Virus record (IMG/VR): IMGVR_UViG_3300025669_002431
From: a virus
Length of the DNA: 64,000 nt
Strand: one strand, 5' to 3'
Shown here: positions 3,995 to 58,635 of the stretch, one piece after another
How the letters are laid out: the number at the start of each line of letters is the position of its first letter
Position numbering within the stretch: position 1 is the stretch's first letter
Program-made: the position numbers and the translations under genes
Notes under the pieces: model-generated
Databases searched by the model: none
The model's input: the letters and a program-made list of their open reading frames with translations, nothing else
What the model was told of the DNA's origin: nothing

Positions 3995-4085
3995 AAGATA
4001 AACTATATGGGATTTGAACCCACATTTCCGGATTGCGGTCCGGTGCCCTACCAATTAGACGAATAGCCGCTATACATATTGTCTC
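3995..4085 (-). pseudogene. degenerate tRNA-like sequence (pseudo-tRNA)
   Basis: Has a T-arm GTGGG-TTCAAAT-CCCAT and a D-loop AATTGGTA motif. Acceptor and anticodon stems do not pair canonically and no CCA is present. Confidence 0.35.
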
Positions 4086-5486: not shown

Positions 5487-5984
5487 CTACATAGCAAAGC
5501 AATCGGAACACTCGTCTTCAGTATCTTTGATTACTTTTTTGATATGTTGGTTTGCCAATTCAATTTGGCTATCTATATGCCTGATAATCTCAAGGTGATC
5601 GAACGCAATATCATTTAATGGAATTTCGTTTCCATCGACGAGATCTACTGGATCAACCCAGCGTAGTTCTGATGCATCATCTCCTGCTTCCCAATTGTAA
5701 TCTTTAGGGTCAATCATTACGCAGTGAACTATTGTTATAGCATGCCCTCTTGGATCACGTAATGGTGTACCGACAGTAGTGTATTGATCTTTATAAGTAA
5801 ATTTAATAGCTGCACCAGTTTCTTCTAGTACTTCTCTCGAAATTGCTTCATGTAGGTCTTCACCTTCATCTACAAACCCACCAGGAAGAGCCCACTTACC
5901 ATGTTCAGTTTCACCCTTTCTCTTGACCATCAACACCCTAAGTCTATCAACTGAATCAAATATTACTGCATCTACTGTAACCAT
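5487..5984 (-). CDS. NUDIX hydrolase
   Basis: Nudix box GGFVDEGEDLHEAISREVLEETGA. The start is probably MVTVDAV (5984) rather than the ORF-track Met at 6065. Confidence 0.85.
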   Translation of the reverse strand: MVTVDAVIFDSVDRLRVLMVKRKGETEHGKWALPGGFVDEGEDLHEAISREVLEETGAAIKFTYKDQYTTVGTPLRDPRGHAITIVHCVMIDPKDYNWEAGDDASELRWVDPVDLVDGNEIPLNDIAFDHLEIIRHIDSQIELANQHIKKVIKDTEDECSDCFAM

Positions 5985-6330
5985 AGGTCTCGGATAATCG
6001 TAGTGGAATCCGCCCAATAATTGGCCGACGCACTGGGATTCGCTCACCCCCCATCCTGATCTCATCTCGCGTAGGTCTTGGGGATCTACCTATTGTTGGT
6101 TGCCAATCATCATCTAGTCCTGTCTCCTCAGGCTCATCAACATCATCACTAATATCTTCAGATACCTCTTCAATAGTAAGCAGTTCATATTCTTTAAATC
6201 TATGAGTATGTCCGCTACCCATTCTAACAACATTATGACTTTCTCTTTTCTCAATAGATTCAATGCTATTACAGTTTATATATTTTGTAGGTTCTTCTTC
6301 CTCTACTTTAAACCACCAACCATTTCCCAT
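5956..6330 (-). CDS. hypothetical acidic protein
   Basis: 124-aa ORF with an Asp/Glu-rich middle. The 3' end overlaps the alternative NUDIX start. Confidence 0.35.
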
Positions 6331-6667
6331 CTCTGTATTCCTCTACAATAATGTTGCTTGGACTCATTGATGCATCAACCTTTTTCTCAATTTCTGCCAT
6401 AGTAACTGCCTGACGAGATACAGTAATGTGCACCCAGTCTTTAAACTTTTTACTTTCACCTAATCTTTTGAATGCTATTTTCTTATTAGCATGTTGTGAC
6501 CGTTGATTCTGGGCCACTGCAACTGCTCCACTTGGAGGATGAGTTATTCTTACAGCGCTATCTGTTTTATTTCTATGCTGTCCTCCAGGACCACTACCAC
6601 GAAATGTATCAATTACAAAATCTTTTTTTGTGAGAGTAAGGACTTTCTTTCTGACCTTAGTATGCAC
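6308..6667 (-). CDS. arfB: ArfB/ICT1-like peptidyl-tRNA hydrolase (class-I release factor GGQ domain)
   Basis: [20 protein letters not shown] closely matches the GGQ motif region of E. coli ArfB (YaeJ). Small size (119 aa). Confidence 0.78.
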
Positions 6668-6669
6668 AT

Positions 6670-7053
6670 CTATCCCTTTATTGTTTTATGAAACGTCTTT
6701 TCATCCCATACAAATGGTACTAAAAACGAACCAGGAATCATCTCTTGCATATATCTTGAACCTGCTGGATTCAATGAATGTATAATTACTTTAGCATCAA
6801 CTGGATTCTTATTTATATATCTAGCAACCTCAGCACCTGTATTTGTTTCAGCACTATTTACAAATACTTGATCACCTAGGTCATGATCACCTAGGTCATG
6901 ATCTAGTAATATTAAATCATATTCTTTTTCTTTTAATAGACGAATTGCTTCTCTAGCAGTATCTACATATTCACCGACCCAACCATGCTCTAGTATTCTT
7001 TGTTTAAATTGTCTAATTCTATTACTGTTGTCTTCTAAAACCAATACTTTCAT
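6670..7053 (-). CDS. stand-alone response-regulator receiver (CheY-like REC) domain
   Basis: MKVLVLEDN...[12 protein letters not shown] matches the CheY fold and acidic pocket. Contains a [10 protein letters not shown] tandem duplication. Confidence 0.8.
6870..6899. repeat. 15-bp perfect in-frame tandem duplication (gatcacctaggtcat x2) inside the REC gene
   Basis: Visible directly in the sequence. It duplicates DHDLG immediately after the predicted phospho-acceptor Asp. Confidence 0.9.
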
Positions 7054-7073
7054 TATTCTTCCTTAAATAGTAA

Positions 7074-7102
7074 GGAGAGGAAGACATAACACCTCCCTCT
7101 CC
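7074..7102 (-). terminator. GC-rich hairpin downstream of the MVP-like gene
   Basis: Stem GGAGAGG / CCTCTCC lies between the MVP stop (7123) and the REC RBS. The U-tract is weak. Confidence 0.3.
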
Positions 7103-7122
7103 ACCACACTCTCGAACTCTAC

Positions 7123-22940: not shown

Positions 22941-23252
22941 CTAAGTTGTAACTAAGACTTCTTCTTTCTTATCTTCATCTGCTATAGGAGCAAATGCTTC
23001 TGCACCATGTGCAAAATATTTGACTAGGTTCTCAGCTGTTTGAGGAATTGTGAAATATTTTCCTTTTGGTAAAAATACCTTACATGTGGGTCTACCTTTA
23101 TCCATGCCATTGTCTACTATGTTCTCAATATGTAAAATATTTATTACTACTATTTTTCCATTAATATCTGTGAGAGTTATTAGAAATCGTTTAATTGAAT
23201 TATCTATTACATCTTGAAAAAGCCTAAATGCTTCCTGTTGTGTCAATGACAA
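22941..23252 (-). CDS. hypothetical protein
   Basis: 103-aa minus-strand ORF. Confidence 0.3.
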   Translation of the reverse strand: MSLTQQEAFRLFQDVIDNSIKRFLITLTDINGKIVVINILHIENIVDNGMDKGRPTCKVFLPKGKYFTIPQTAENLVKYFAHGAEAFAPIADEDKKEEVLVTT

Positions 23253-23913
23253 CTTTCTTCTCCTTCTTTGCTATGTTTGTAGGTTTCCATTTTTTTGACC
23301 AATGAATATCAGTTTGTACATGATTTTCTCTGACGAACTTTCCAATATTCAATTGAAATTCTGAGAATGGAAATGCTGAATAAGACCTCACAACTACTCC
23401 TTCTTTCGGTCCTCCGAACATAGAAGGGTATTTCATCTGTTCTAATATAAGTCCCTTTAATTGGTTCTCATCTTTTACGAATCCCTCATATAATACCGGA
23501 GGAGTAGGAACATTCAACATTGTAGCATAATTGGATATTACATCCCAGCTTAAAAATACATTATTTTCTACTACAGATAACAAGAATAAGAAGTGAGGTA
23601 AAGACGTATATTCTATACTATGAATTGCATACATATTTTCAAAGTAAAACCATAAATTACTATAATCTCCTTCACATCCAAATGTTTTACCAGCCCAATT
23701 TTTTACTATGTTGAATGATGGATGAGTTGCTTTTCCACCGCGAGATCTAGCATACACTTCGCAGTCCACTATCCCTGTATTAGATCCATCCATCTTTTCT
23801 GTAATTATTATTTTTCTTCCAATAAATGGAGCAGATGATACTAGTTTCCTATTTGGATTTCCAGGAGAAAATGGTAGCCTCAACGTCCTAGGATATTTGT
23901 CTATGTTAATCAT
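23224..23913 (-). CDS. ATP-dependent RNA ligase (RNA_ligase/Rnl5-DRB0094-like nucleotidyltransferase)
   Basis: Motif I ITEKMDGSN (KxDG), motif IV KEGVVVRS, motif V KFVREN. Size and spacing fit minimal RNA ligases. Confidence 0.6.
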   Translation of the reverse strand: MINIDKYPRTLRLPFSPGNPNRKLVSSAPFIGRKIIITEKMDGSNTGIVDCEVYARSRGGKATHPSFNIVKNWAGKTFGCEGDYSNLWFYFENMYAIHSIEYTSLPHFLFLLSVVENNVFLSWDVISNYATMLNVPTPPVLYEGFVKDENQLKGLILEQMKYPSMFGGPKEGVVVRSYSAFPFSEFQLNIGKFVRENHVQTDIHWSKKWKPTNIAKKEKKVVIDTTGSI

Positions 23914-36184: not shown

Positions 36185-37128
36185 TAGTTTACCTTCCTAT
36201 TCAGAACCTTTAAGGCTTTCTTTATTGAGCCTAAAGGAACTGAGTTTGTTGCTGTGTCAATATTTAATGTGTATAATTTGTAAGGAAAATATCGAGTATA
36301 TTCTTTGATTTTATTCATCATAATACAACGATCCCAACCTAGTATTTCTCCAGCTAACCACATAGGACCACTGTTTATTCCAATGAAGTATTTACACTCT
36401 GCTATTTTATTCATCATGTCTATAATAGTTCCCCCTGATTCCCTCATGGTATTTCCATTCATCCATTTAGGAATAGGTTGGACACAATAATGTGGCAGCA
36501 TAGGAACATTCATATGAATTTCAAATGGATCATATCCCATCGCTTTAACATCATTCCATACTATTTCGGGACCACCATCCATTAAACTTTTTTTACTATA
36601 AGCAGTATTACCAATGAAATGAATGCCCACCATATTAGAATTTTTAACAGGTTTTATTTTAGGTCTCCAGTTACCCCAATCAACATCTAATCCAAATTCT
36701 AATTTCGCTACATTTTGAAACTTCTTCAGCTTAGAATTCATGGGCTGTTCTGGAAACTTTAAAACAAATATATAATCATATTCTTTAATATATGAACTAT
36801 CATATTTTTCTTTAAATGTATCTTTGAATACAGAAGGTCTATCGTGTTTTCCTTTTGTCTTATTTAAAATCACAATATCTTCGTGTAATCCTTTGACTTG
36901 GATCATGGGGTGACAACCTATATTGAACTCCCAATTAGGATATTTTTTCTTAAGTACTTCATATATCTGGAAGAACATTATGAAGTCGCCAAGCCCATGA
37001 TCGAAAACAAAGAGAGCTTTCCCTGATTTTTTCCTGTTAAGATAAGAACAGACAGTGGCTCTCTTTGAAACTATATTCTCTATTAGCATATTATTTCCAA
37101 ACGTCGGCGTCTTCCTCACTTGTTTCAT
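36184..37128 (-). CDS. putative glycosyltransferase (GT9/heptosyltransferase-like N-terminus)
   Basis: ALFVFDHGLGDFIMFFQIYEVLKKKYPNWEFNI resembles the GT9 signature. Weak. Confidence 0.35.
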   Translation of the reverse strand: MKQVRKTPTFGNNMLIENIVSKRATVCSYLNRKKSGKALFVFDHGLGDFIMFFQIYEVLKKKYPNWEFNIGCHPMIQVKGLHEDIVILNKTKGKHDRPSVFKDTFKEKYDSSYIKEYDYIFVLKFPEQPMNSKLKKFQNVAKLEFGLDVDWGNWRPKIKPVKNSNMVGIHFIGNTAYSKKSLMDGGPEIVWNDVKAMGYDPFEIHMNVPMLPHYCVQPIPKWMNGNTMRESGGTIIDMMNKIAECKYFIGINSGPMWLAGEILGWDRCIMMNKIKEYTRYFPYKLYTLNIDTATNSVPLGSIKKALKVLNRKVN

Positions 37129-39376
37129 ACTGTTCTATTATCTCAGTTCTAAGCACGTCCTCTACATCATTATCCCATGCTTTTCTAAATTCAGCATTTT
37201 CTCTGTAATATTTAATCGCTTCCTTCTGTCTAAACTTCTGAGTAGGATACGATTCTAATGTACACCAAGCGGCAGCTTTAATTCTTTTTGTTCTCTTTAG
37301 TAGTTCATAATTTGTCCAGAAGTTTGAGAAGCCTCTTTCGAAACTAACTATCATGGATATGTCAATGTTTGGAGAAAATAACTTATTCTTTACAGCCTTT
37401 CCTGTGAGCTTAACTCCATTGAATCCATACTCTCCTGCTACATCTCCAGTAGGCCTGAAGAAAAAAAGTTGTGTAGATGCGAATAGATTAGCATTACCTC
37501 CTGGAATATTATACGCTCCAAGAAATTTTAGTTTATTAAATCCTTTGAATTTACCAACCTGCATACTATCTCTAAGTTGATTCAGAGCGAACAAACATAT
37601 ATTATAATTTGCCATCTTATCAGAATATTTTTTAAGATATTTAGTAAGGGCACTTGCTTGTATACTTAATTGTTCTGTATTAGTTGTTACCTCAGCTTCA
37701 GTAGGAGTACTCGCTATACTATCCCATACTATAATGGATGGTACATCTAGTATATCTTTGTGTTCTTCCTTATATGCACATAACCCCTCAACGATTGAGA
37801 ATACCTTTTCGATTGTAATTCCATTTTGTGGATTTATCTCTGGATATTTAACTCCAAGATCTGTAAGTCTTTTTTTAGTAGTTGTATTTTCTGAATCTAA
37901 GTATACTGATATAAATTTTCCAGGCCATTTCCTTTGACCCGAAGATATAACCTTCGCAGCCAATGTAGAGTTATGAGTAACTATGAACTCGTCAGTTATA
38001 TATGACCCATTTGGATTATTAACTTCTATGCACTGAGCTTCTGATTTTTCAACAAACTTAACCGATTTTATACATTTCGTTATGGTTCTTTTTCTTATAT
38101 TTGATAATAACTTTGATTTTTCTTTTACTCTTACTGGGGGAAAACAATTTGGTAGGTTTATATCTAGTTGAAATGATTTAAAAATATTCCCATTATATTT
38201 TGTTTTTTTATTATATATTTTTATTCTTCCTCCCAATGATCTAATTATAAATGCTACGTCATCTATCAATCGTTTAGATATTGAATAAAAACACATTCTA
38301 TTTGTTTTTTCTATAGATCCATCAGTATCACATAACCCTTGTAAGATTGATAATCTATCATCAATTGAACTAAATTTATATGAATCTGGTATAAATTTAT
38401 CTTTAGAACTTTTTCCCAATAATCCTAATTCATTTAAAATAACTTTCATCTCATTGCGTAAAATATCTTTTTTGCCTTGACCTCTTCTATTCATTCTATT
38501 AAATATATATCCGTATTTTGAGCCATTAATTACCTCTAATTTTATATTATCTGGGAGGGTTTTTTCACAAATATTTATAATTTCTTTATATTTATCAGAT
38601 ACTGTAAGAGATATTTTATCATTTCGACTATACATAGATCCATCTCCCAAAAGGCACCCCAATAAATATGGGTCAATCGGTAAATTATTTTTATCAAAAT
38701 TAATAGCATTATTAACAGGTATGGTCCATTTTTTATCGCTAGTATGTTGGTTATTTATATCTTCAAAAATCTCTTCTAATCGTCTAACTTTAAATTCTGA
38801 TTTATAATCTTTTTTACATATCCAAAGATGGTCTAACGTGGATCTAGCTTTGGTTCCGTCGGTAAATTTTATTTCATATATATCCTTTTCCCCCTGTGGA
38901 GATACATTTGTAATATTACAAATTTCCCCTCTAGAATCAAATACATTATTTCCTATTTTCATTTCTCCCATAGTCTTCCAACCACTAGGTGTTAAAATTT
39001 TAGAATACAATGGTTGTGCTTTTCCACAACCAGGAGGCCCAACAAATTGTACTAATCCTGTCGAGACTCCTCCACCAAGTACAGTATCCAATAGATCTAT
39101 ACCAGTAGGAATAGTTGTCTTATTTTCTTTTGATTCAGTAAAGTCATATCCTTTTTTAAGGAAAGAAGAAAAGTCTTCAAATAAGTCTTTAGATTTTTCT
39201 AATTCACCTTCTGTCAGCTTGACATCCGAATATTTACTAGTTATTAATGTATCTTCTTCTATTGATGCTGCCGCTTCCGTTGGGACCTGAGGTAGCAAAG
39301 TTTTCTTTTTCTTTTTCTCCTGCACTGCAGGAATTGATTCTTCTTCAACAAGTTTATCCATTATCTTCCTTTCCAA
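37091..39376 (-). CDS. RecA/UvsX-family recombinase interrupted by a LAGLIDADG intein in the Walker A loop
   Basis: The extein reads LGGGVSTGLVQFVGPPGCGK-STLAAKVIS...VYLDSE, a RecA-like P-loop. The insert has LAGLIDADG motifs (LLGCLLGDGSM, LQGLCDTDGSIE) and ends THN|S. Confidence 0.7.
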   Translation of the reverse strand: MERKIMDKLVEEESIPAVQEKKKKKTLLPQVPTEAAASIEEDTLITSKYSDVKLTEGELEKSKDLFEDFSSFLKKGYDFTESKENKTTIPTGIDLLDTVLGGGVSTGLVQFVGPPGCGKAQPLYSKILTPSGWKTMGEMKIGNNVFDSRGEICNITNVSPQGEKDIYEIKFTDGTKARSTLDHLWICKKDYKSEFKVRRLEEIFEDINNQHTSDKKWTIPVNNAINFDKNNLPIDPYLLGCLLGDGSMYSRNDKISLTVSDKYKEIINICEKTLPDNIKLEVINGSKYGYIFNRMNRRGQGKKDILRNEMKVILNELGLLGKSSKDKFIPDSYKFSSIDDRLSILQGLCDTDGSIEKTNRMCFYSISKRLIDDVAFIIRSLGGRIKIYNKKTKYNGNIFKSFQLDINLPNCFPPVRVKEKSKLLSNIRKRTITKCIKSVKFVEKSEAQCIEVNNPNGSYITDEFIVTHNSTLAAKVISSGQRKWPGKFISVYLDSENTTTKKRLTDLGVKYPEINPQNGITIEKVFSIVEGLCAYKEEHKDILDVPSIIVWDSIASTPTEAEVTTNTEQLSIQASALTKYLKKYSDKMANYNICLFALNQLRDSMQVGKFKGFNKLKFLGAYNIPGGNANLFASTQLFFFRPTGDVAGEYGFNGVKLTGKAVKNKLFSPNIDISMIVSFERGFSNFWTNYELLKRTKRIKAAAWCTLESYPTQKFRQKEAIKYYRENAEFRKAWDNDVEDVLRTEIIEQYETSEEDADVWK
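37970..39019 (-). mobile_element. intein with LAGLIDADG homing endonuclease (in the RecA-like gene)
   Basis: About 350 aa with block A-like ILTPSGWKTM..., two LAGLIDADG motifs and C-terminal ...IVTHN followed by Ser. Confidence 0.6.
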
Positions 39377-41132: not shown

Positions 41133-42029
41133 TTATTTCTTTCCTATTTTAGAACATTTCCAACCATTTTTATGGCTTTTCTGTCGACCGAATGCCACAT
41201 GATTCATTCCAACTACGTTTAAATTATTTTCTTCACAAAATTTAGATAAGTTATCTACAATATATATTTTTCCAGTTGGATCAATTATTTTATATTTATT
41301 TTTTGTTCCATATGTATTTCCTTTATTAATATCAGATATTTTGTTCCTTAACTCATCATTATTCCATGCAGATTTTATCTTGTTTTTGTGTTCTAATCTC
41401 TTTTCATCACTTCTATTTTTCCAAATTTCTGTCTGTATTTTGGATATCTTTTTCTTTACTTCAGGTCTATTTAGAGAATCAGTAATTTCTTTTATTCTTT
41501 TACTTCTATTTTCTTCAATAGACCAAAAATTCTTTAAACCTCTAGAAACTTTTTCTTTATATTCTTTGTTTTTATTTAACTCAGTAAAAATTTTACTATG
41601 GTTTTTTCTTCTCTCTTTTGACCATTTTTGATTTATTGGTGTCTCTCCACCATCTGTTAAATTTGTGAGAGGACCATTTCCTAAATCATATCTGCCTATA
41701 TTTTTTATTATATGTTTTTCTTCATTAAATGCATTTAATTTATTCATCTCAATTTTTAATTTAATTATAATAGGTTCAAGATCATACCTAAAAATCTTTC
41801 TAATTTTGTTAAGTTTTAATTGGTTTCTTTTAGAAAAACATCGACTTGCTTCAGATAGATGGGATTTATATCTCCGACCATGACCTGCGCCAACATAAAA
41901 TGGTTCATATAATAATCCAAATCCCAAATTAGGATAAACATATTTTCCAGGTTTTCGGGGATCTAGATAAATATATACATAATAATTATTTTGATTTTTT
42001 TTCTTTTTGTTTTTTGGAGTGGAGGGCAT
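41133..42029 (-). CDS. GIY-YIG homing endonuclease
   Basis: GIY-YIG core YYVYIYLDP...FYVGAGHGRRYKSH followed by Lys-rich NUMOD-like DNA-binding repeats. Confidence 0.78.
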   Translation of the reverse strand: MPSTPKNKKKKNQNNYYVYIYLDPRKPGKYVYPNLGFGLLYEPFYVGAGHGRRYKSHLSEASRCFSKRNQLKLNKIRKIFRYDLEPIIIKLKIEMNKLNAFNEEKHIIKNIGRYDLGNGPLTNLTDGGETPINQKWSKERRKNHSKIFTELNKNKEYKEKVSRGLKNFWSIEENRSKRIKEITDSLNRPEVKKKISKIQTEIWKNRSDEKRLEHKNKIKSAWNNDELRNKISDINKGNTYGTKNKYKIIDPTGKIYIVDNLSKFCEENNLNVVGMNHVAFGRQKSHKNGWKCSKIGKK

Positions 42030-43050
42030 AAATTAAATTTCCTGTTGCTACAGCCGCTAATGGGTCTTTTGCTCTTCTTATATCAGAGACATTATATGGG
42101 AATATATCTCTATAGTTTTCATCGAAAACTTTTGTAAAACATTCTATAAACCCATTGGGTAAAGATGTTCCACCCGATACAATGATCGGAATATCTTCTC
42201 CTATTTCGAGAGCATCAGAAGATTTTTCAAATTCTTTACAAAATGTTTTTAATATATATTCTATCATATCTTTATAGAAGAAAACCAGACACTCTAATGC
42301 TCGTTTCTCTGCTTTTTTCTTTGATATAATAGGATTATCTAAATCTAATTTACTCTCTTTTAATCTTGTAACTCTACTTACAGGAACATTAATAGAATCA
42401 GACACTTGTTTATCAATCCAGTCTCCTCCTCTCTTGATAGCAAATGCTAGACTCATAATTCCTCTGTAAGAAAACGCTACATTAATTAAACCACATCCAC
42501 AACTGATCCCTATTCCGCTAAAGTTCGTATCTGCACACTCTGAAAAAATTATCCCCATTCCTTCATTTAAAGGTTTAGCATCATATCCGATAGAATCTAA
42601 AACCTTTGAGAACACCTGTTCATGATACAGCACAGGAGGATTGTCAGCGTCTACTGTGTCTGCTGGCACTGAGTATACACAATAGCCTCTTTGTCCCTTA
42701 GGAGGCGTTTTGACTAGCTTCTTAGCCATCACAGTGAGTATATCTATAGCATCTATGTCCTTGCTGGAGATGACGCCTCCTTCCATAGGACGTCTTGGAG
42801 TAATACCAAATATCTGGGAAAATCTAAAACAATCTTCACCAATAATAAAGACTCTTTCCACATCGTCCTCATTACTAACTATGTAATCTAAATCTGTATT
42901 TTCTAATTCTTCTATTGCTATAACATCAGTATCAATCTCTGAGAACATATTTCTTACTGTATTTATAGTAATTTTACCTTCAGTTGCCTGACAGGCGGAA
43001 ACTTGATTCATTGTACCTAAATCATACCCATAATAATGTTTTATATCCAT
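41986..43050 (-). CDS. actin-fold ATPase (ParM/MreB/FtsA-like)
   Basis: ASKHA motifs: phosphate-1 YGYDLGTMNQVSA, phosphate-2 GIGISCGCGLINVAF, adenosine IIVSGGTSLPNGF. Confidence 0.6.
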   Translation of the reverse strand: MDIKHYYGYDLGTMNQVSACQATEGKITINTVRNMFSEIDTDVIAIEELENTDLDYIVSNEDDVERVFIIGEDCFRFSQIFGITPRRPMEGGVISSKDIDAIDILTVMAKKLVKTPPKGQRGYCVYSVPADTVDADNPPVLYHEQVFSKVLDSIGYDAKPLNEGMGIIFSECADTNFSGIGISCGCGLINVAFSYRGIMSLAFAIKRGGDWIDKQVSDSINVPVSRVTRLKESKLDLDNPIISKKKAEKRALECLVFFYKDMIEYILKTFCKEFEKSSDALEIGEDIPIIVSGGTSLPNGFIECFTKVFDENYRDIFPYNVSDIRRAKDPLAAVATGNLIYALHSKKQKEKKSK

Positions 43051-50260: not shown

Positions 50261-50842
50261 CTATTTTATTCTTGTTATAGTTCCAGTGTACGATAGAAAT
50301 GCTGCTAATGGAATGCTCCAAAACAAGGTGAGAAACATCCCAGTAAATATTGGCCCCCAAAATTTCATAGCATTCCCTGCATCTGCATCAGCAACTATTT
50401 CATATGTTGCCCCTTTAACTTCTACGGTAAACTTATGATATGGATTGGAACCAGAATTCCATCTAACATTACAATCTATATTTTTAACTCCTTTTGCATC
50501 GGCGACCACCTTACTTGAGAGCCCACCCTTTGGAAAAAGTGCTATGTTTGCCCCTAACATTTCTCCCTTCTTTTTAGGTAATCCTGAATCAAAAAGCATA
50601 TACGATGTAGCAGCACCAGCCAACAGCTGCCAACCTACTTTTTTTGATCTATCTTCTGCCTGAATGATAGTACCCCCTCCATAATAACTACCTTCTTTTA
50701 AAACTTCTGGACTTAGAAGTTCTTCAATTTTCCGTTCACTTACATATGTTTTCTTTTCCATTGCTACTTCTCCATTGCTACTTCTCATATATTTATAATG
50801 TGTACACATTACAACCACAGTCCCAAATACGATCATACCCAT
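50261..50842 (-). CDS. membrane protein (N- and C-terminal TM segments)
   Basis: MGMIVFGTVVVMC... and ...IFTGMFLTLFWSIPLAAFLSY. Confidence 0.35.
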   Translation of the reverse strand: MGMIVFGTVVVMCTHYKYMRSSNGEVAMEKKTYVSERKIEELLSPEVLKEGSYYGGGTIIQAEDRSKKVGWQLLAGAATSYMLFDSGLPKKKGEMLGANIALFPKGGLSSKVVADAKGVKNIDCNVRWNSGSNPYHKFTVEVKGATYEIVADADAGNAMKFWGPIFTGMFLTLFWSIPLAAFLSYTGTITRIK

Positions 50843-52634
50843 TGAGTTGCATATTCTGCCACTCAGTTAAATTTGAATCAAATGATTCTAATAAATTTTT
50901 TAATTTATGCTTCTGAAATTTAATTCTAGAGGATCTATCTCCATTCTTAACATAATAATAAGAAGGCTTAGATTTAGAAGTAAAACTAAATCCATTCTTT
51001 AAATAAACTTCACCAGTTCCATATCTTAAATCACAATATGTGATAATTGATTTAGGATTATATTTAGTTTTAAAATACTTTAATAATTTAGAGAACCCAC
51101 CAACAACACTAGTATTAATCTTATTACAAAATCTTAATATTTCATATTCGTATTTTTTATTATATCTGGATTTACCAATGGTTAAAATAGAAACTAATTC
51201 GTCTTCGAAATATAGTCCATATTGTGTTCCTTTGATAGAACCCTGAATGTGGTTATCAAATAAAAATAATTGGGCATTATCATTTGCAACTTCTTTAATA
51301 GTACATTTACGAGCAAATACCCGATATTTAGTTAACCCTAGTTTATTTTTGATTATAGACTTAACAATTTCTAGCTTATCAATCCATTCATCTTCGAAGA
51401 CATGTAAAAGATTTATTCCTTTTTCTTTACATTTATAAGTTTTATCCAAGTGATAATCTTTATTTTTACCATTAAGATCCGAATGCCAGTATAAACCATT
51501 ATATTCGATAGCAAGGTTATTGGATAGTATGTAGACGTCGAGTTCCTTACCGATTAATACAGAGCGGTCATTCTCTATTATTTCAATATCGTCGGTTAAG
51601 ATTGATCTACAAAAATCAAAAATCTCTTTCTCACCTTTGGAACAACTATTCAATTTAGGATAACAATTTGAGCATCTTGGGATTTTGCCATTGTCTACAC
51701 TATCGTTAAAATCATTTCCACATTTAATGCAGTTCCAAGAATATTCAAAATCAACCCCTTGAAAATCATTCTCTGTGAAATTTGGAGCGCATTTATTTTT
51801 AAGTCGATCAGAATTAATAAGATTAGTGAAAAATTTGCTTCTTCTTTTTTGTGTAGTATTATATATTATTTCATCTAATTGCAGAATTGTTTTTACACCA
51901 TATTTCTTTAAATTAGTTTTCTCAATTTTGTCTCTAATTTCTTTAGAGTTAGAAGCGTGTTCTACACCATATTTTTTTAGATTTGTATTTTTAATTTTTT
52001 CTTTCACTTTTTCAGATTGGAAAACACATTCAACACCATGTCGGTTCAAATTAGTTTTTTTAATCTTAGATTTAATATCTTTATTCTGACCAACATTTTC
52101 AACACCATATAGTTCTAAATTAGTTTTCTTAATCTTATCTCTTATTTCCTTAGATTGTAGTGGATTTTCAACACCATATCGTTTCAGGTTAGTTTGTTTC
52201 ATTTTAGTTCTTATCTCTGATGACTGGCCGGAATATTCTACACCATATTTTTCTATCATAGTATGTTTAGCACGATCTCTGATTTTTTTAGATCTCGATA
52301 CATGATCTACACCATACCTTTTTTGAAATGTTTTTTTAGTTTTAATTTTAGTCTCTTCAGCTTGCAATGTGCATTCAACACCATATCGTTCAAGACTGCT
52401 TCGTTTTCGTTTTTCTACCCCGTGTTTTCCGCCGCACGACGCCGAACAAGTTTTAGTAAATCCTTTGCCAAGTCCTTTAAAGTTACATAACTGGCCACAT
52501 ATAGGACATTTATTATTAGAATTAATATATTTTAAATAGTATATCATAATATTTATTTTATGAAAACTACGGATATGTCCTGATAGTTGAACTAAATTCT
52601 TAAATTCTTTATCACATATTTTACAGTTTATCAT
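50793..52634 (-). CDS. modular endonuclease: C2H2 zinc finger + about 8 NUMOD3-like 29-aa repeats + Vsr/DUF559-like nuclease domain
   Basis: CKICDKEF...HIRSFH C2H2. Tandem repeats KTNLxxYGVExxxQSKEIRDKIKK. C-terminus DVYILSNNLAIEYNGLYWHSD...GINLLHVFEDEW matches the Vsr-like endonuclease core. Confidence 0.55.
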   Translation of the reverse strand: MINCKICDKEFKNLVQLSGHIRSFHKINIMIYYLKYINSNNKCPICGQLCNFKGLGKGFTKTCSASCGGKHGVEKRKRSSLERYGVECTLQAEETKIKTKKTFQKRYGVDHVSRSKKIRDRAKHTMIEKYGVEYSGQSSEIRTKMKQTNLKRYGVENPLQSKEIRDKIKKTNLELYGVENVGQNKDIKSKIKKTNLNRHGVECVFQSEKVKEKIKNTNLKKYGVEHASNSKEIRDKIEKTNLKKYGVKTILQLDEIIYNTTQKRRSKFFTNLINSDRLKNKCAPNFTENDFQGVDFEYSWNCIKCGNDFNDSVDNGKIPRCSNCYPKLNSCSKGEKEIFDFCRSILTDDIEIIENDRSVLIGKELDVYILSNNLAIEYNGLYWHSDLNGKNKDYHLDKTYKCKEKGINLLHVFEDEWIDKLEIVKSIIKNKLGLTKYRVFARKCTIKEVANDNAQLFLFDNHIQGSIKGTQYGLYFEDELVSILTIGKSRYNKKYEYEILRFCNKINTSVVGGFSKLLKYFKTKYNPKSIITYCDLRYGTGEVYLKNGFSFTSKSKPSYYYVKNGDRSSRIKFQKHKLKNLLESFDSNLTEWQNMQLNGYDRIWDCGCNVYTL

Positions 52635-55404: not shown

Positions 55405-58400
55405 CTATTTTTTAATTTCACAACTACCATTATCGCAGAATTTTAGCGTTTCTTTTGATTCTATCTCTTCTTCTTTAGTCATTTTTATCTTCGATAATTT
55501 TAAAGGTTTTAGGGTTGATATATATAATTCATATTTTTCTTTTGTAATTTCTTCATATGGCATTTGTTTATATGATTTCACATCAAGAGGTAAAAATGAT
55601 ACAGCTTTTATTTTGTCTTCATATACTTCTAACACATCTTTAATCGAATTAGATTCATTTTCGTTAAATGTTACAGTCTGTGATACACCATTATCAGACC
55701 AATAGTGTTGTATATCTGCGTGAAGAGCCATTTGTTCCCATATAGTAATATCTCTCTTGGATTTAAAGAAATTTTTAGTTCTTATTGGAAATTCAAAAAT
55801 CCACGAATTTTTTTTATAATAAGACTGCTCTTTTTTATATCCGGCAATTTCTAGTGGTTTAATAAAAGGAGAGTTTTTTTGAAATTCTATTCTTCGAATA
55901 TAATATTCTGAGTGTGGAAAATGAATACCCGGATTACTTCCTGGTAATAATGATACAGTATTATGACTTTTTATACCTCCGGAATAATACCAATGATCTT
56001 TATCGACTTCTAAATCATACGTTTCTTCATACCCTTCTAATTCATGTACACTTACTACTTTACCTAAAATTAAAACATTTTGAGATTCAGTCAGACACTT
56101 AAATGATATATCATGTGGTGGATTTCGCATGTCATTTATTTTTATTAATTTATTGGATGTTTTTAATAATACATGGAGAGAATTAATATCTGTGTGGGAA
56201 TTTAATGTTAAATTCCATATATGTTTAATTTCTTGTTTGTTCTCCCCTTCTGTATTCAAAGATCTTCCAAAACATAATCCAACAGAAAATCCAACTTCTT
56301 GTATATTTTTTGCAAAATTATCATAGGCGGTTGAAATACATATTCCCACATCGCCGTCACGAACAAATACACAACCATCCGAATCAATTAATCCCGAAAT
56401 AAATGCTAAAATATTTTCTTTAGATGATTCTCTTACAATTCTTGGAATTACCGATATATTGCCCTGTTCATCATATTTAGTTATTCCATTAATATTCCAA
56501 AAGTCCCAAAGATGCCGAGACCCAATTTCAAGCACAAACGCGTTTCTATCTTGACTTGCAGGTTTTATATTAGAGTCTAATCCAAATAAATCATATATTA
56601 TTTTTTTTGCTTTTTCCAGATTATATTTATTCTCATCTATAAATCTAGTTCTAAATTTATGTCTACTCAAACAACCGTCTCCATATAAATATCCTATAAT
56701 CCAAGCAAGATCATTATTCATATATTCAGGTTGAGTTATAATATTTCCACGAGCACCAATAAAAGTATCTGGTATTGCTGAATGGGATAGTTTTGAACAA
56801 ATATTTTTTCTATAAGAATTCATACTAATATGAATAATATCGCCAGCTCGAACATCATTGGCACATATCCATTTGTTGACGTCTATTCTCTTATATCCTC
56901 CTTTTTCACTACTAGCATTCATATGTTCACTAACAAACACCATATGATTCGGGGTGCATTCAAAATCTAAATTGTAGTTCATTTTAATTTTAATTATTTT
57001 AGAAGTACTATTTCTATATGTTCTTAATATTTTATTTTTACTATTTTTCTGGTATACATAACTATCACTGTGATCGTTGTTCCACTCCAAATCTTCAGGA
57101 TGTTCTTCTAATAATTCATCTAGAGATAAAATCCCTCTATCTGTCGAAGTTAACGATCTACCCGGTCTACAACCACTCGGTTTTGTCGTAGTTACTTTTA
57201 TACTTTTCGGTACACATAACCACCTAGAATATAATTTATCCAGTTTTCTAATATTATTATATCCAGAATCACAAAACTCATTAAGAAACCTACGTCTACC
57301 AAATTTATAAATAGCATCTGTTATTCCTGACATAGATAACCCAATTCTTCTATTTCTAAGCATAACTTGATTTGTGCGTTCATCATGAGATGGTACTAAT
57401 GTAACACTTTTAGCTAAAAGATAAGCATATTTAAGAGTTTCTAAAAATTCTTCTTCGTTTTCATGATTAGCTGGAAATGTTTCACACAATAAACACATTT
57501 CATATTTTGATAGTGACATTTCAGCACAGGGATTTAATCCACAAACTCCCTCATCTTCCCATTTCTCTCCATCTTTTATCCTCCCATACTTTCTCATATT
57601 ATCTAAATACACTATTCCTGGTTCACCGTTATTAATAATGTGCTTGGTTAATTGTGTATAATCTGCACCAACTTCAGCAAATACTGAATTGTTTGAATTC
57701 CATCTCCAATCCTTTAATTCCTTTTCATATTTCTCAGGATTTTTCATATTCAAAAAATCAATATCATCATATTCTCCTATTGCTATTTCACTAGACCTTC
57801 TTTGTCCACCGCTTACTACACATTTCCCAACTATATTGAAAATATCAACTATATTTACAGATGTAATATATTTATCTACACATTTATTAAGAACCAGTTT
57901 TATCTCTTCTATACATAATTTTAATGGACCTGGTCCGGGAGCAATGCCTCCAAATGTTTTTATAAAACTTCCGTTAGGTCTTATTTTACTAAAATCAAAT
58001 TCTCTGGGCATTTTTGATTTATGAACATAAGAGTTTAATACTACTTCCACAGCATCTCTCCAACCTTCTCTACTATCATCTATAGTAAAAACATAATCTC
58101 CAACCTTAGGTTCTTGAATTTTAACTTTTCCTGCCCCTTTTAGATCGAATCCGCACCCTACCCCCAATAAAGCAACGTCCATTAACCAACAAAAAGGTCC
58201 ACTAAAATCATAATGTAGATCTTCAGTGGAACAAAATCCACAATTTAATAAAACAGCTACTCCTTTTTTCCAAACAACATCTTCTCCAAGGGTCCACAAC
58301 ATTCTCCCTGGAGGAAGAAATTTAAAATTCCACATCAACTCAAACATTTTTTGAGCAGATTTCTGTGCTTTATGTGCATTCCAATACAATCTTAAATTTT

Positions 58401-58635
58401 TACAATGATTTAGTTGAATTGTATAACATCCTTCCACTACTCGTTTGAGAGTCTCCCAAAATTCTTCATATCTATCTTCTTTTTCAATATATCGACTATA
58501 CGTTCTTTTATATGTAATAGCTCCAACTGGTCCCCAATTAGGTTGCTCGTTTGTATATTGATCTAAAAAATTCTCTGTCAAATTAAACTTTTCCCTGATT
58601 GGAAAAACCCAATCACTCATGTCAACTTTTGTCAT
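55405..58635 (-). CDS. nrdJ: class II (adenosylcobalamin-type, monomeric RTPR-like) ribonucleotide reductase interrupted by a LAGLIDADG intein
   Basis: Active-site GLNPCAEMSL...CLLCETF (N-x-C-x-E). C-terminal redox pair FCDNGSC (C-x4-C). The extein is about 700 aa. The insert has block B ECTPNHMVFV, LAGLIDADG motifs (IGYLYGDGCL, ISGLIDSDGCV) and ends SHN|T. Confidence 0.7.
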   Translation of the reverse strand: MTKVDMSDWVFPIREKFNLTENFLDQYTNEQPNWGPVGAITYKRTYSRYIEKEDRYEEFWETLKRVVEGCYTIQLNHCKNLRLYWNAHKAQKSAQKMFELMWNFKFLPPGRMLWTLGEDVVWKKGVAVLLNCGFCSTEDLHYDFSGPFCWLMDVALLGVGCGFDLKGAGKVKIQEPKVGDYVFTIDDSREGWRDAVEVVLNSYVHKSKMPREFDFSKIRPNGSFIKTFGGIAPGPGPLKLCIEEIKLVLNKCVDKYITSVNIVDIFNIVGKCVVSGGQRRSSEIAIGEYDDIDFLNMKNPEKYEKELKDWRWNSNNSVFAEVGADYTQLTKHIINNGEPGIVYLDNMRKYGRIKDGEKWEDEGVCGLNPCAEMSLSKYEMCLLCETFPANHENEEEFLETLKYAYLLAKSVTLVPSHDERTNQVMLRNRRIGLSMSGITDAIYKFGRRRFLNEFCDSGYNNIRKLDKLYSRWLCVPKSIKVTTTKPSGCRPGRSLTSTDRGILSLDELLEEHPEDLEWNNDHSDSYVYQKNSKNKILRTYRNSTSKIIKIKMNYNLDFECTPNHMVFVSEHMNASSEKGGYKRIDVNKWICANDVRAGDIIHISMNSYRKNICSKLSHSAIPDTFIGARGNIITQPEYMNNDLAWIIGYLYGDGCLSRHKFRTRFIDENKYNLEKAKKIIYDLFGLDSNIKPASQDRNAFVLEIGSRHLWDFWNINGITKYDEQGNISVIPRIVRESSKENILAFISGLIDSDGCVFVRDGDVGICISTAYDNFAKNIQEVGFSVGLCFGRSLNTEGENKQEIKHIWNLTLNSHTDINSLHVLLKTSNKLIKINDMRNPPHDISFKCLTESQNVLILGKVVSVHELEGYEETYDLEVDKDHWYYSGGIKSHNTVSLLPGSNPGIHFPHSEYYIRRIEFQKNSPFIKPLEIAGYKKEQSYYKKNSWIFEFPIRTKNFFKSKRDITIWEQMALHADIQHYWSDNGVSQTVTFNENESNSIKDVLEVYEDKIKAVSFLPLDVKSYKQMPYEEITKEKYELYISTLKPLKLSKIKMTKEEEIESKETLKFCDNGSCEIKK
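55960..57156 (-). mobile_element. intein with LAGLIDADG homing endonuclease (in the RNR gene)
   Basis: About 399 aa, SLTSTDRGIL... to ...YYSGGIKSHN. Blocks A, B, C/E, F and G are recognisable. Confidence 0.6.

Follow-up and report, generated by a model that had tools for sequence, protein, structure and literature searches.

The sequence analysed here (hereinafter the window) is a 64,000-nt stretch of viral DNA, IMG/VR record IMGVR_UViG_3300025669_002431, with a phage-like organization: all its genes lie on one strand and include tRNAs, homing endonucleases and intein-bearing genes for a ribonucleotide reductase and a UvsX/RecA-like recombinase, and it contains a match to a PHROG virion structural protein. 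The inteins carry LAGLIDADG domains and apparently interrupt the reductase and recombinase genes at 55405–58635 (minus strand) and 37091–39376 (minus strand), and several free-standing HNH and GIY-YIG endonucleases are scattered in the window as well. An actin-like protein (41986–43050, minus strand) is recognized by the Pfam Volactin model with E = 1.3e-61; Volactin is a family of archaeal actin homologs and is unexpected in an AT-rich phage-like genome. The locus of interest is a small gene of the cREC family with an internal tandem duplication, which is surrounded by the following features:

5487..6065, minus strand: Nudix hydrolase, similar to the ADP-ribose pyrophosphatase and NadM-Nudix types (Pfam NUDIX, 5.5e-20; NCBIfam NtrR and NadM-Nudix, below cut-off)
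6308..6667, minus strand: RF-1 domain (GGQ) peptidyl-tRNA hydrolase-like gene, 119 aa, GTG start (Pfam RF-1, 4.4e-22; phrog_3122, 8e-33)
6670..7053, minus strand: cREC gene, 127 aa, a stand-alone domain with an ATG start (ORF and Pfam PF20274)
6869..6903, no strand: perfect 15-bp tandem duplication, 2.33 copies, D51-H-D-L-G / D56-H-D-L-G / D61-Q62 (Tandem Repeats Finder)
6901..6903, minus strand: codon for the β3-terminal Asp D51, equivalent in alignment to the phospho-acceptor Asp of classical receivers (profile alignment to the NtrC1 and TrrA receivers; coordinate from the ORF frame)
7058..7064, minus strand: Shine-Dalgarno-like AAGGAAG, a few nt 5′ of the cREC ATG (read from the sequence)
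7074..7102, minus strand: terminator-like 13-pair stem-loop between the major vault protein and cREC genes, GGAGAGGGAGG...CTTCCTCTCC, with a weak T tail
7123..9867, minus strand: major vault protein (MVP) homolog, 914 aa, immediately upstream of cREC (Pfam MVP_shoulder, 7.7e-28; Vault_3, 4e-10)
11658..12746, minus strand: ATP-dependent RNA ligase of the DRB0094 type (TIGR02306, 152.9 bits against a cut-off of 151.15; Pfam RNA_ligase and PHA02142 OB)
23224..23913, minus strand: second RNA ligase domain protein (Pfam RNA_ligase, 3.6e-19)

The 127-aa ORF is found exactly as described in the initial annotation of this DNA, and the perfect in-frame tandem duplication reported there is recovered both by direct reading and by Tandem Repeats Finder. 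On the plus strand the 15-mer gatcacctaggtcat occupies positions 6870–6884 and again 6885–6899; the program delimits the tract as 6869–6903 (period 15, 2.3 copies, 100% matches) and gives it a score of 70, the highest in the 64-kb window. On the coding strand the codons GAT CAT GAC CTA GGT run twice and are followed by GAT CAA, converting LLDHDLGDQ into LLD51-HDLG-D56-HDLG-D61-Q. The phase of the repeat is ambiguous by 5 nt, as a result of which the duplicated peptide can be read either as DHDLG or as HDLGD and the conserved Asp can be counted within the unit. The repeat is beyond chance expectation: the self-match run at a lag of 15 extends over 20 bases, as compared to a maximum of 16 in 200 block shuffles evaluated over all lags from 10 to 60. 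A second short tandem repeat (50753–50786; period 14, 2.4 copies, 95% matches) sits elsewhere in the window where the ORFs 50261..50842 and 50793..52634 overlap, and its 14-nt unit would shift the frame.

The sequence around the two copies points to how they arose. The repeat continues for 5 nt past the second full copy, and the pentamer GATCA stands at both of its ends, 15 bp apart. Read back from the present tract, a single-copy ancestor would have had GATCA flanking the 15-nt unit at both ends (GATCAtgacctaggtGATCAa). Such a GATCA...GATCA arrangement is a classic substrate for slipped-strand mispairing. The motif is followed by GAT GAA (Asp-Glu) in relatives as against GAT CAA (Asp-Gln) in the window gene, and it is this E-to-Q substitution (GAA to CAA) that makes the 5-nt microhomology complete. 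The unit further contains the palindromes TGATCA, CCTAGG and TCATGA, and the duplicated tract is predicted to fold as single-stranded DNA with −9.5 to −10.1 kcal/mol (z about −4) compared to −3.8 for the reconstructed single copy. The two copies are identical base for base, which fits a recent event, and the nearest homolog is 57–62% identical, leaving no close outgroup with which to date it. Perfect head-to-tail copies, bounding microhomology and absence from relatives are the marks by which slippage is recognized, and all of them are present here. The duplication is a genuine and recent slippage event, which was one of the two origins offered in the initial annotation; replication slippage between the two GATCA microhomologies would have generated the in-frame repeat of the signature DHDLG.

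The other origin offered there was an assembly artefact, in which case assembly or sequencing added the repeat and the true gene has one copy of the 15-mer. Such an explanation gains some appeal from the perfection of the tandem repeat, a diverged copy of which was found nowhere, and from its restriction to this protein: a comparison with orthologs, as the initial annotation had recommended, finds two DHDL motifs in only one of the 181 family proteins in hand, namely the window protein, the other 180 lacking the duplication, and a second DHDL motif at none of 89 related loci. However, the identical 127-aa protein occurs on at least 10 contigs, and the seven of these that are readable (three ENA MEGAHIT contigs, two from JGI metagenomes and two Logan assemblies of SRA runs), which derive from three assembly pipelines, share an identical 66-nt stretch with two copies and are 99.98–100% identical to the window over 1.0–4.6 kb. 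Moreover, at 35 nt the periodic tract falls short of the length of any read, and by its sequence every k-mer of at least 21 nt across it is unique, such that a de Bruijn assembler should be unable to add a copy. Neither the reconstructed one-copy protein (122 aa) nor its three-copy counterpart (132 aa) is present in a collection of 15 billion proteins, in which the 90% cluster of the 127-aa protein has a single member. Given the seven two-copy contigs, the unique k-mers and the want of a one-copy protein, we reject an artefact and leave it only a vanishing probability.

The seven contigs are near-clonal, and the JGI, SRA and ENA records may partly share libraries; they thus represent few samples of one population, perhaps a few libraries from one site, and, as they are virtually clonal, the fixation of the allele says little on selection. 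A gapped DNA pattern accommodating one-, two- and three-copy alleles, which works on the window and the seven fetched loci, had no match in IMG/VR and JGI metagenome contigs, from which the phage itself is absent, making this search uninformative on alleles. We also considered a phase-variable contingency locus and rejected it, there being no other copy-number allele and two copies of a 15-mer being not very unstable.

The initial annotation described the product of this gene as a CheY-like response regulator devoid of an output domain. With respect to the fold this holds: AlphaFold2 predicts a (βα)5 receiver fold (pLDDT 88.8, pTM 0.84), and Foldseek retrieves classical receivers only, with TM scores of ~0.7 (0.6–0.74) and ~20% identity, no solved cREC structure being among its matches. 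With respect to the family it does not. The Pfam model PF20274 (cREC_REC) recognizes the window protein with 55.4 bits (cut-off 27; E = 9.8e-15) and outscores PF00072 (Response_reg) by 25 bits, the latter attaining 30.2 bits, exactly its gathering cut-off, over only model positions 1–77 of 111. Removal of the duplication in silico barely shifts either score, and the 32–33 database homologs (30–62% identity) are all pre-annotated as PF20274. In an alignment of 33 sequences (32 homologs and the window protein) the D-H-D-L-G motif, G73, H92 and P113 are invariant, and E7, D8, R12, F16, D46, S93 and N95 are conserved in at least 90%. Across a wider set of relatives DHDLG is retained in 158 of 181, the remaining 23 being listed with DHDL followed by another residue. 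The family signature H-S-x-N at the end of β4 and the Pro in β5 are likewise both present in the window protein.

In the work that defined it (Iyer, Anantharaman, Krishnan, Burroughs & Aravind 2021, Viruses 13:63, PMC7824862), the cREC domain is a divergent receiver never associated with histidine kinases; it is linked to NAD/ADP-ribose-processing enzymes and RNA ligases, and is predicted to open the 2′,3′-cyclic ends of RNA or else cyclic ADP-ribose derivatives. A 2022 survey reports it as chiefly found in phages, with up to 18% of jumbo phages encoding it, and as often fused or linked to Nudix, and lists it as experimentally uncharacterised (PMC9503650); our literature search found no later paper testing its activity. 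By our own searches the family comprises 2079 representative clusters at E ≤ 1e-3 and 324 at E ≤ 1e-10, and was confirmed at 127 IMG/VR loci, many of them on contigs of 100–527 kb. With so large a phage-borne family, a stand-alone receiver-like gene is therefore not unusual in a phage, contrary to what had initially been suggested.

A reading closer to that first description would take the protein as a true single-domain response regulator, i.e., a CheY-like phosphate sink that draws phosphoryl groups off a host histidine kinase or phosphorelay, thereby rewiring host signaling, with the duplication altering the kinetics of phosphotransfer or autodephosphorylation. In addition to the receiver fold and the gathering-level PF00072 score, it can invoke the alignment of the family profile with solved receivers, which sets E7-D8 against the acidic pair and D51 against the phospho-acceptor Asp (EDD...D of NtrC1 and TrrA), placing the duplication where the initial annotation had located it, and S93 against the β4 Thr of TrrA, thus recapitulating the D, D, D and T of the CheY type; some source annotations of relatives also use the term 'CheY-like'. 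However, the same alignment sets the invariant Pro against the β5 Lys of TrrA: the window protein reads V112-P113 at this point, and a Lys before the Pro is found in none of 166 relatives, which have I, L, V, M or F instead. Thus, of the conserved Asp, Thr and Lys positions by which the initial annotation had proposed to recognize a receiver, the first two are occupied (by D51 and S93) and the Lys is absent. The margin of the cREC model and the invariant H52, D53, H92 and N95, which have no role in phosphotransfer, weigh in the same direction.

Nor do the contexts offer a kinase partner. None was detected among the window ORFs that were scanned (~48 of ~85 against profile libraries, ~38 of them against Pfam with its kinase models), and the neighbours here and at the 15 relatives' loci that were read are RNA-, NAD- or anti-defence-related, with no kinase; the 80 IMG/VR loci were screened only for relatives of the window's own neighbour genes. 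Together with the published absence of any link to histidine kinases and the prediction of a cyclic-phosphate phosphoesterase (PMC7824862), this speaks against the initial proposal that the protein titrates a host histidine kinase, and we consider a genuine response regulator improbable. Phosphorylation at D51 may nevertheless occur, since PF00072 is attained at the gathering score and the acidic pocket and Ser are kept. The initial annotation is hence partly supported: its observation is confirmed, and its functional interpretation mostly lacks support.

As a cREC protein, the window protein is distinguished by the length of its β3–α3 loop. In 139 of 173 proteins, 12 residues separate DHDL from the T/S-G capping helix 3; the window protein has 17, and loops of 14–18 residues occur in only four others of the 173. 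The first copy follows immediately on the hydrophobic strand LILL and must consequently keep its canonical position; the first DHDLG would thus remain at the end of strand β3, with the second copy and the residues following it forming an extra 5-residue bulge in the β3–α3 loop at the entrance to the active site. In the AlphaFold2 confidence profile, pLDDT averages ~57 over residues 51–70 and falls below 50 at residues 56–63, as compared to 90–95 for the same loop in the homolog P0003, a drop that may partly reflect lacking alignment depth for the inserted residues. It is suggestive only that the second copy would most simply be a bulge in a normally ordered active-site loop.

The lengthening of the loop from 12 to 17 residues and the accompanying drop in confidence imply that activity may be altered or lost, and we give roughly even odds to the predicted enzyme keeping full activity despite the insertion. 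At the far end of this range, the duplication would have inactivated the predicted enzyme, the gene being an allele disabled not long ago that drifts in a clonal phage population, and hence an incipient pseudogene. The departure from a spacing shared by 80% of the family, the loss of confidence exactly at a loop that is well ordered in the homolog, the replacement of the consensus Glu after the motif by Gln and a population diversity of about zero, which would have left no time for purifying selection, are all in line with inactivation. Yet the gene retains its reading frame, its ribosome-binding site and all invariant residues, loops of 14–18 residues occur naturally in four relatives, the allele is the sole one found in every sample, and there is a tight coupling of cREC to the RF-1 gene downstream. 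On balance, we see an inactivated gene as unlikely, though worth keeping in mind.

This coupling is evident from the RF-1-like gene starting 2 nt after the cREC stop, and the two genes are probably co-translated. The best NCBIfam match of the RF-1-like protein is PrfH, well below its cut-off, and by sequence it appears to be a short phage-type peptidyl-tRNA hydrolase (phrog_3122). Further downstream there is a 124-aa unknown ORF along with the Nudix gene. The MVP homolog on the upstream side matches PDB MVP chains over residues 530–850 (E about 1e-16) and has no PHROG or NCBIfam match; its gene lies on an island of 50–52% GC as against ~33% elsewhere in the window and looks like a recent acquisition. 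We found no report of a phage-encoded MVP in the literature searched. The MVP and cREC genes are separated by 69 nt, and the stem-loop situated there might act as a terminator or mark the boundary of the GC-rich insert. The DRB0094-type RNA ligase is 4.6 kb from cREC and the second RNA ligase 16 kb, and a calcineurin-like phosphoesterase and an NAD-dependent DNA ligase are also encoded in the window. The accessory genes between 675 and 31685 are interspersed with eleven minus-strand tRNA genes; ARAGORN and Rfam predict 10 each, nine of them in common, with 3999–4069 called by Rfam only and a tRNA-Tyr at 675–763 by ARAGORN only. The ARAGORN set includes an unusual tRNA-Tyr(ATA) at 14952–15030.

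Across 89 loci of relatives, genes like the window's own within 5 kb of cREC amount to an RNA ligase at seven, a Nudix and a calcineurin-like phosphoesterase at four each, RF-1 at two and MVP at none. A general linkage of cREC to RF-1 or MVP is accordingly rejected as a family-wide rule (2/89 and 0/89 loci), and these low adjacencies lend only weak support to teamwork with either of them. Other relatives adjoin genes for an ADP-ribosyltransferase, NAD salvage, a DHH phosphoesterase and the CCA-adding enzyme, and still others lie near anti-defence genes (Tad2-like, Acb5 and Gad2). Thus, the general gene context matches that published for cREC, the RF-1, MVP and TROVE links being sub-lineage-specific. 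L008, the closest relative for which gene context is available, has cREC, a 68-aa ORF and an RF-1 homolog with an intact GGQ in this order. The frame of this homolog (5643–5999) is intact, and the first ATG, GTG or TTG codon in it is a GTG downstream of the GGQ; the gene might use a non-canonical start, depend on coupling to the 68-aa ORF or be decaying. On the contig of the close relative P0003 (L097), the genes ahead of cREC encode a TROVE/Ro60-like protein (Pfam, 4.9e-11) and three tRNAs (66–1724, 1833–2526). This suggests that a cREC sub-lineage travels with RNP-type RNA quality-control proteins, namely MVP here and TROVE/Ro60 in P0003. An Rfam search of the window and of these two contigs returned tRNAs only, with no Y RNA, vault RNA or other family.

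Accordingly, we put at roughly 70% the probability that the gene encodes a stand-alone cREC protein, a predicted phosphoesterase rather than a phospho-accepting switch, which carries a genuine and recent slippage duplication. The window context fits this prediction, with an RF-1/PrfH-like gene, a Nudix gene, two RNA ligases and 11 tRNAs. We posit that the acidic pocket (E7, D8 and D51), together with the invariant H52, D53, H92, S93 and N95, might open a cyclic phosphate. Its substrates might be the 2′,3′-cyclic ends that host anticodon nucleases and ribotoxins generate in tRNA or rRNA or, alternatively, cyclic phosphates derived from ADP-ribose. The products could then be handled by the phage ATP-dependent RNA ligases and the Nudix enzyme, and the abutting RF-1/PrfH-like hydrolase might free stalled peptidyl-tRNA.

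A more elaborate version of this scenario would take the duplication as adaptive, with the second H-D pair by the catalytic pocket retuning the substrate range, and would unite cREC, the RF-1-like hydrolase and an RNP scaffold into a module for rescuing ribotoxin-cut ribosomes and tRNAs, i.e., an RtcB-independent analog of RtcB-PrfH. The scaffold would be the MVP here and the Ro60/TROVE protein with tRNAs in P0003. We view this extended version as a long shot. On the preferred reading of a cREC protein with a slippage duplication, the family is ordinary and already known, and what is new is the unique five-residue duplication of its signature motif, a curious allele in a neighborhood that is more intriguing than the duplication itself. 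The MVP homolog, cREC, RF-1-like hydrolase, Nudix enzyme, RNA ligases and tRNAs hint at a cluster for the maintenance of the translation apparatus. The window allele is, moreover, a naturally occurring mutant with an insertion in the loop that is most conserved across the cREC family, and comparing it with its de-duplicated form would offer a cheap route to the catalytic residues. For annotation, the lesson is that a small gene of a large phage labelled 'CheY-like' usually encodes a cREC protein, a predicted enzyme of counter-defence or RNA repair instead of a signaling decoy.

The duplication also bears on how such proteins are found. A blastn search with positions 6000–9900 against the INPHARED phages returned only a chance match of 83 nt, and hence there is no sequenced close relative. 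With the 127-aa protein, tblastn against sequenced phages retrieved nothing even at E ≤ 10, whereas the de-duplicated sequence finds ORF044 of the Ralstonia jumbo phage phiRSL1. The repeat probably triggers low-complexity masking of the best-conserved motif and thereby of the seed; duplicated alleles can thus hide from routine searches.

In comparison to the cREC family (PF20274) as published, the window protein passes the family model, has both DHDLG and H-S-x-N in a stand-alone domain of ~120 aa, and comes from a large phage with Nudix, RNA ligase and phosphoesterase genes nearby, as the authors of the family describe. It differs in its unique 5-residue motif duplication, which extends the loop to 17 residues from 12, and in its RF-1/PrfH-like and major vault protein partners, which are outside the published associations. 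With the classical receivers (CheY, Spo0F and NtrC1; PF00072) it shares the (βα)5 fold, the acidic pocket, the Ser/Thr of β4 and an Asp (D51) at the phospho-acceptor position. In contrast to them, it has no β5 Lys, possesses the additional invariant His, Asp and His and is only ~20% identical; further, the β3–α3 loop of cREC is ~9 residues longer even without the duplication, and no kinase partner was detected among the ORFs and loci scanned.

The 2H phosphoesterases (phage and cellular 2′,3′-cyclic phosphodiesterases, such as LigT) have the same job as that predicted for cREC, namely opening 2′,3′-cyclic or ADP-ribose 1″,2″-cyclic phosphates, and are found in the same kind of neighborhood of RNA-repair and NAD-linked systems (PMC9503650). 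However, their fold is unrelated, and in the case of cREC the activity is a prediction. Finally, the bacterial ribosome/RNA repair pair RtcB-PrfH likewise places a GGQ release-factor-like gene beside an enzyme of 2′,3′-cyclic-phosphate RNA ends (PMC6514570), a role that is predicted for cREC here. It differs from the present locus in that the partner here is not RtcB but cREC, with ATP-dependent RNA ligases several kb off, and in that the RF-1 protein of the window, at 119 aa, is below the PrfH cut-off and such a pairing is seen at two of the 89 related loci.
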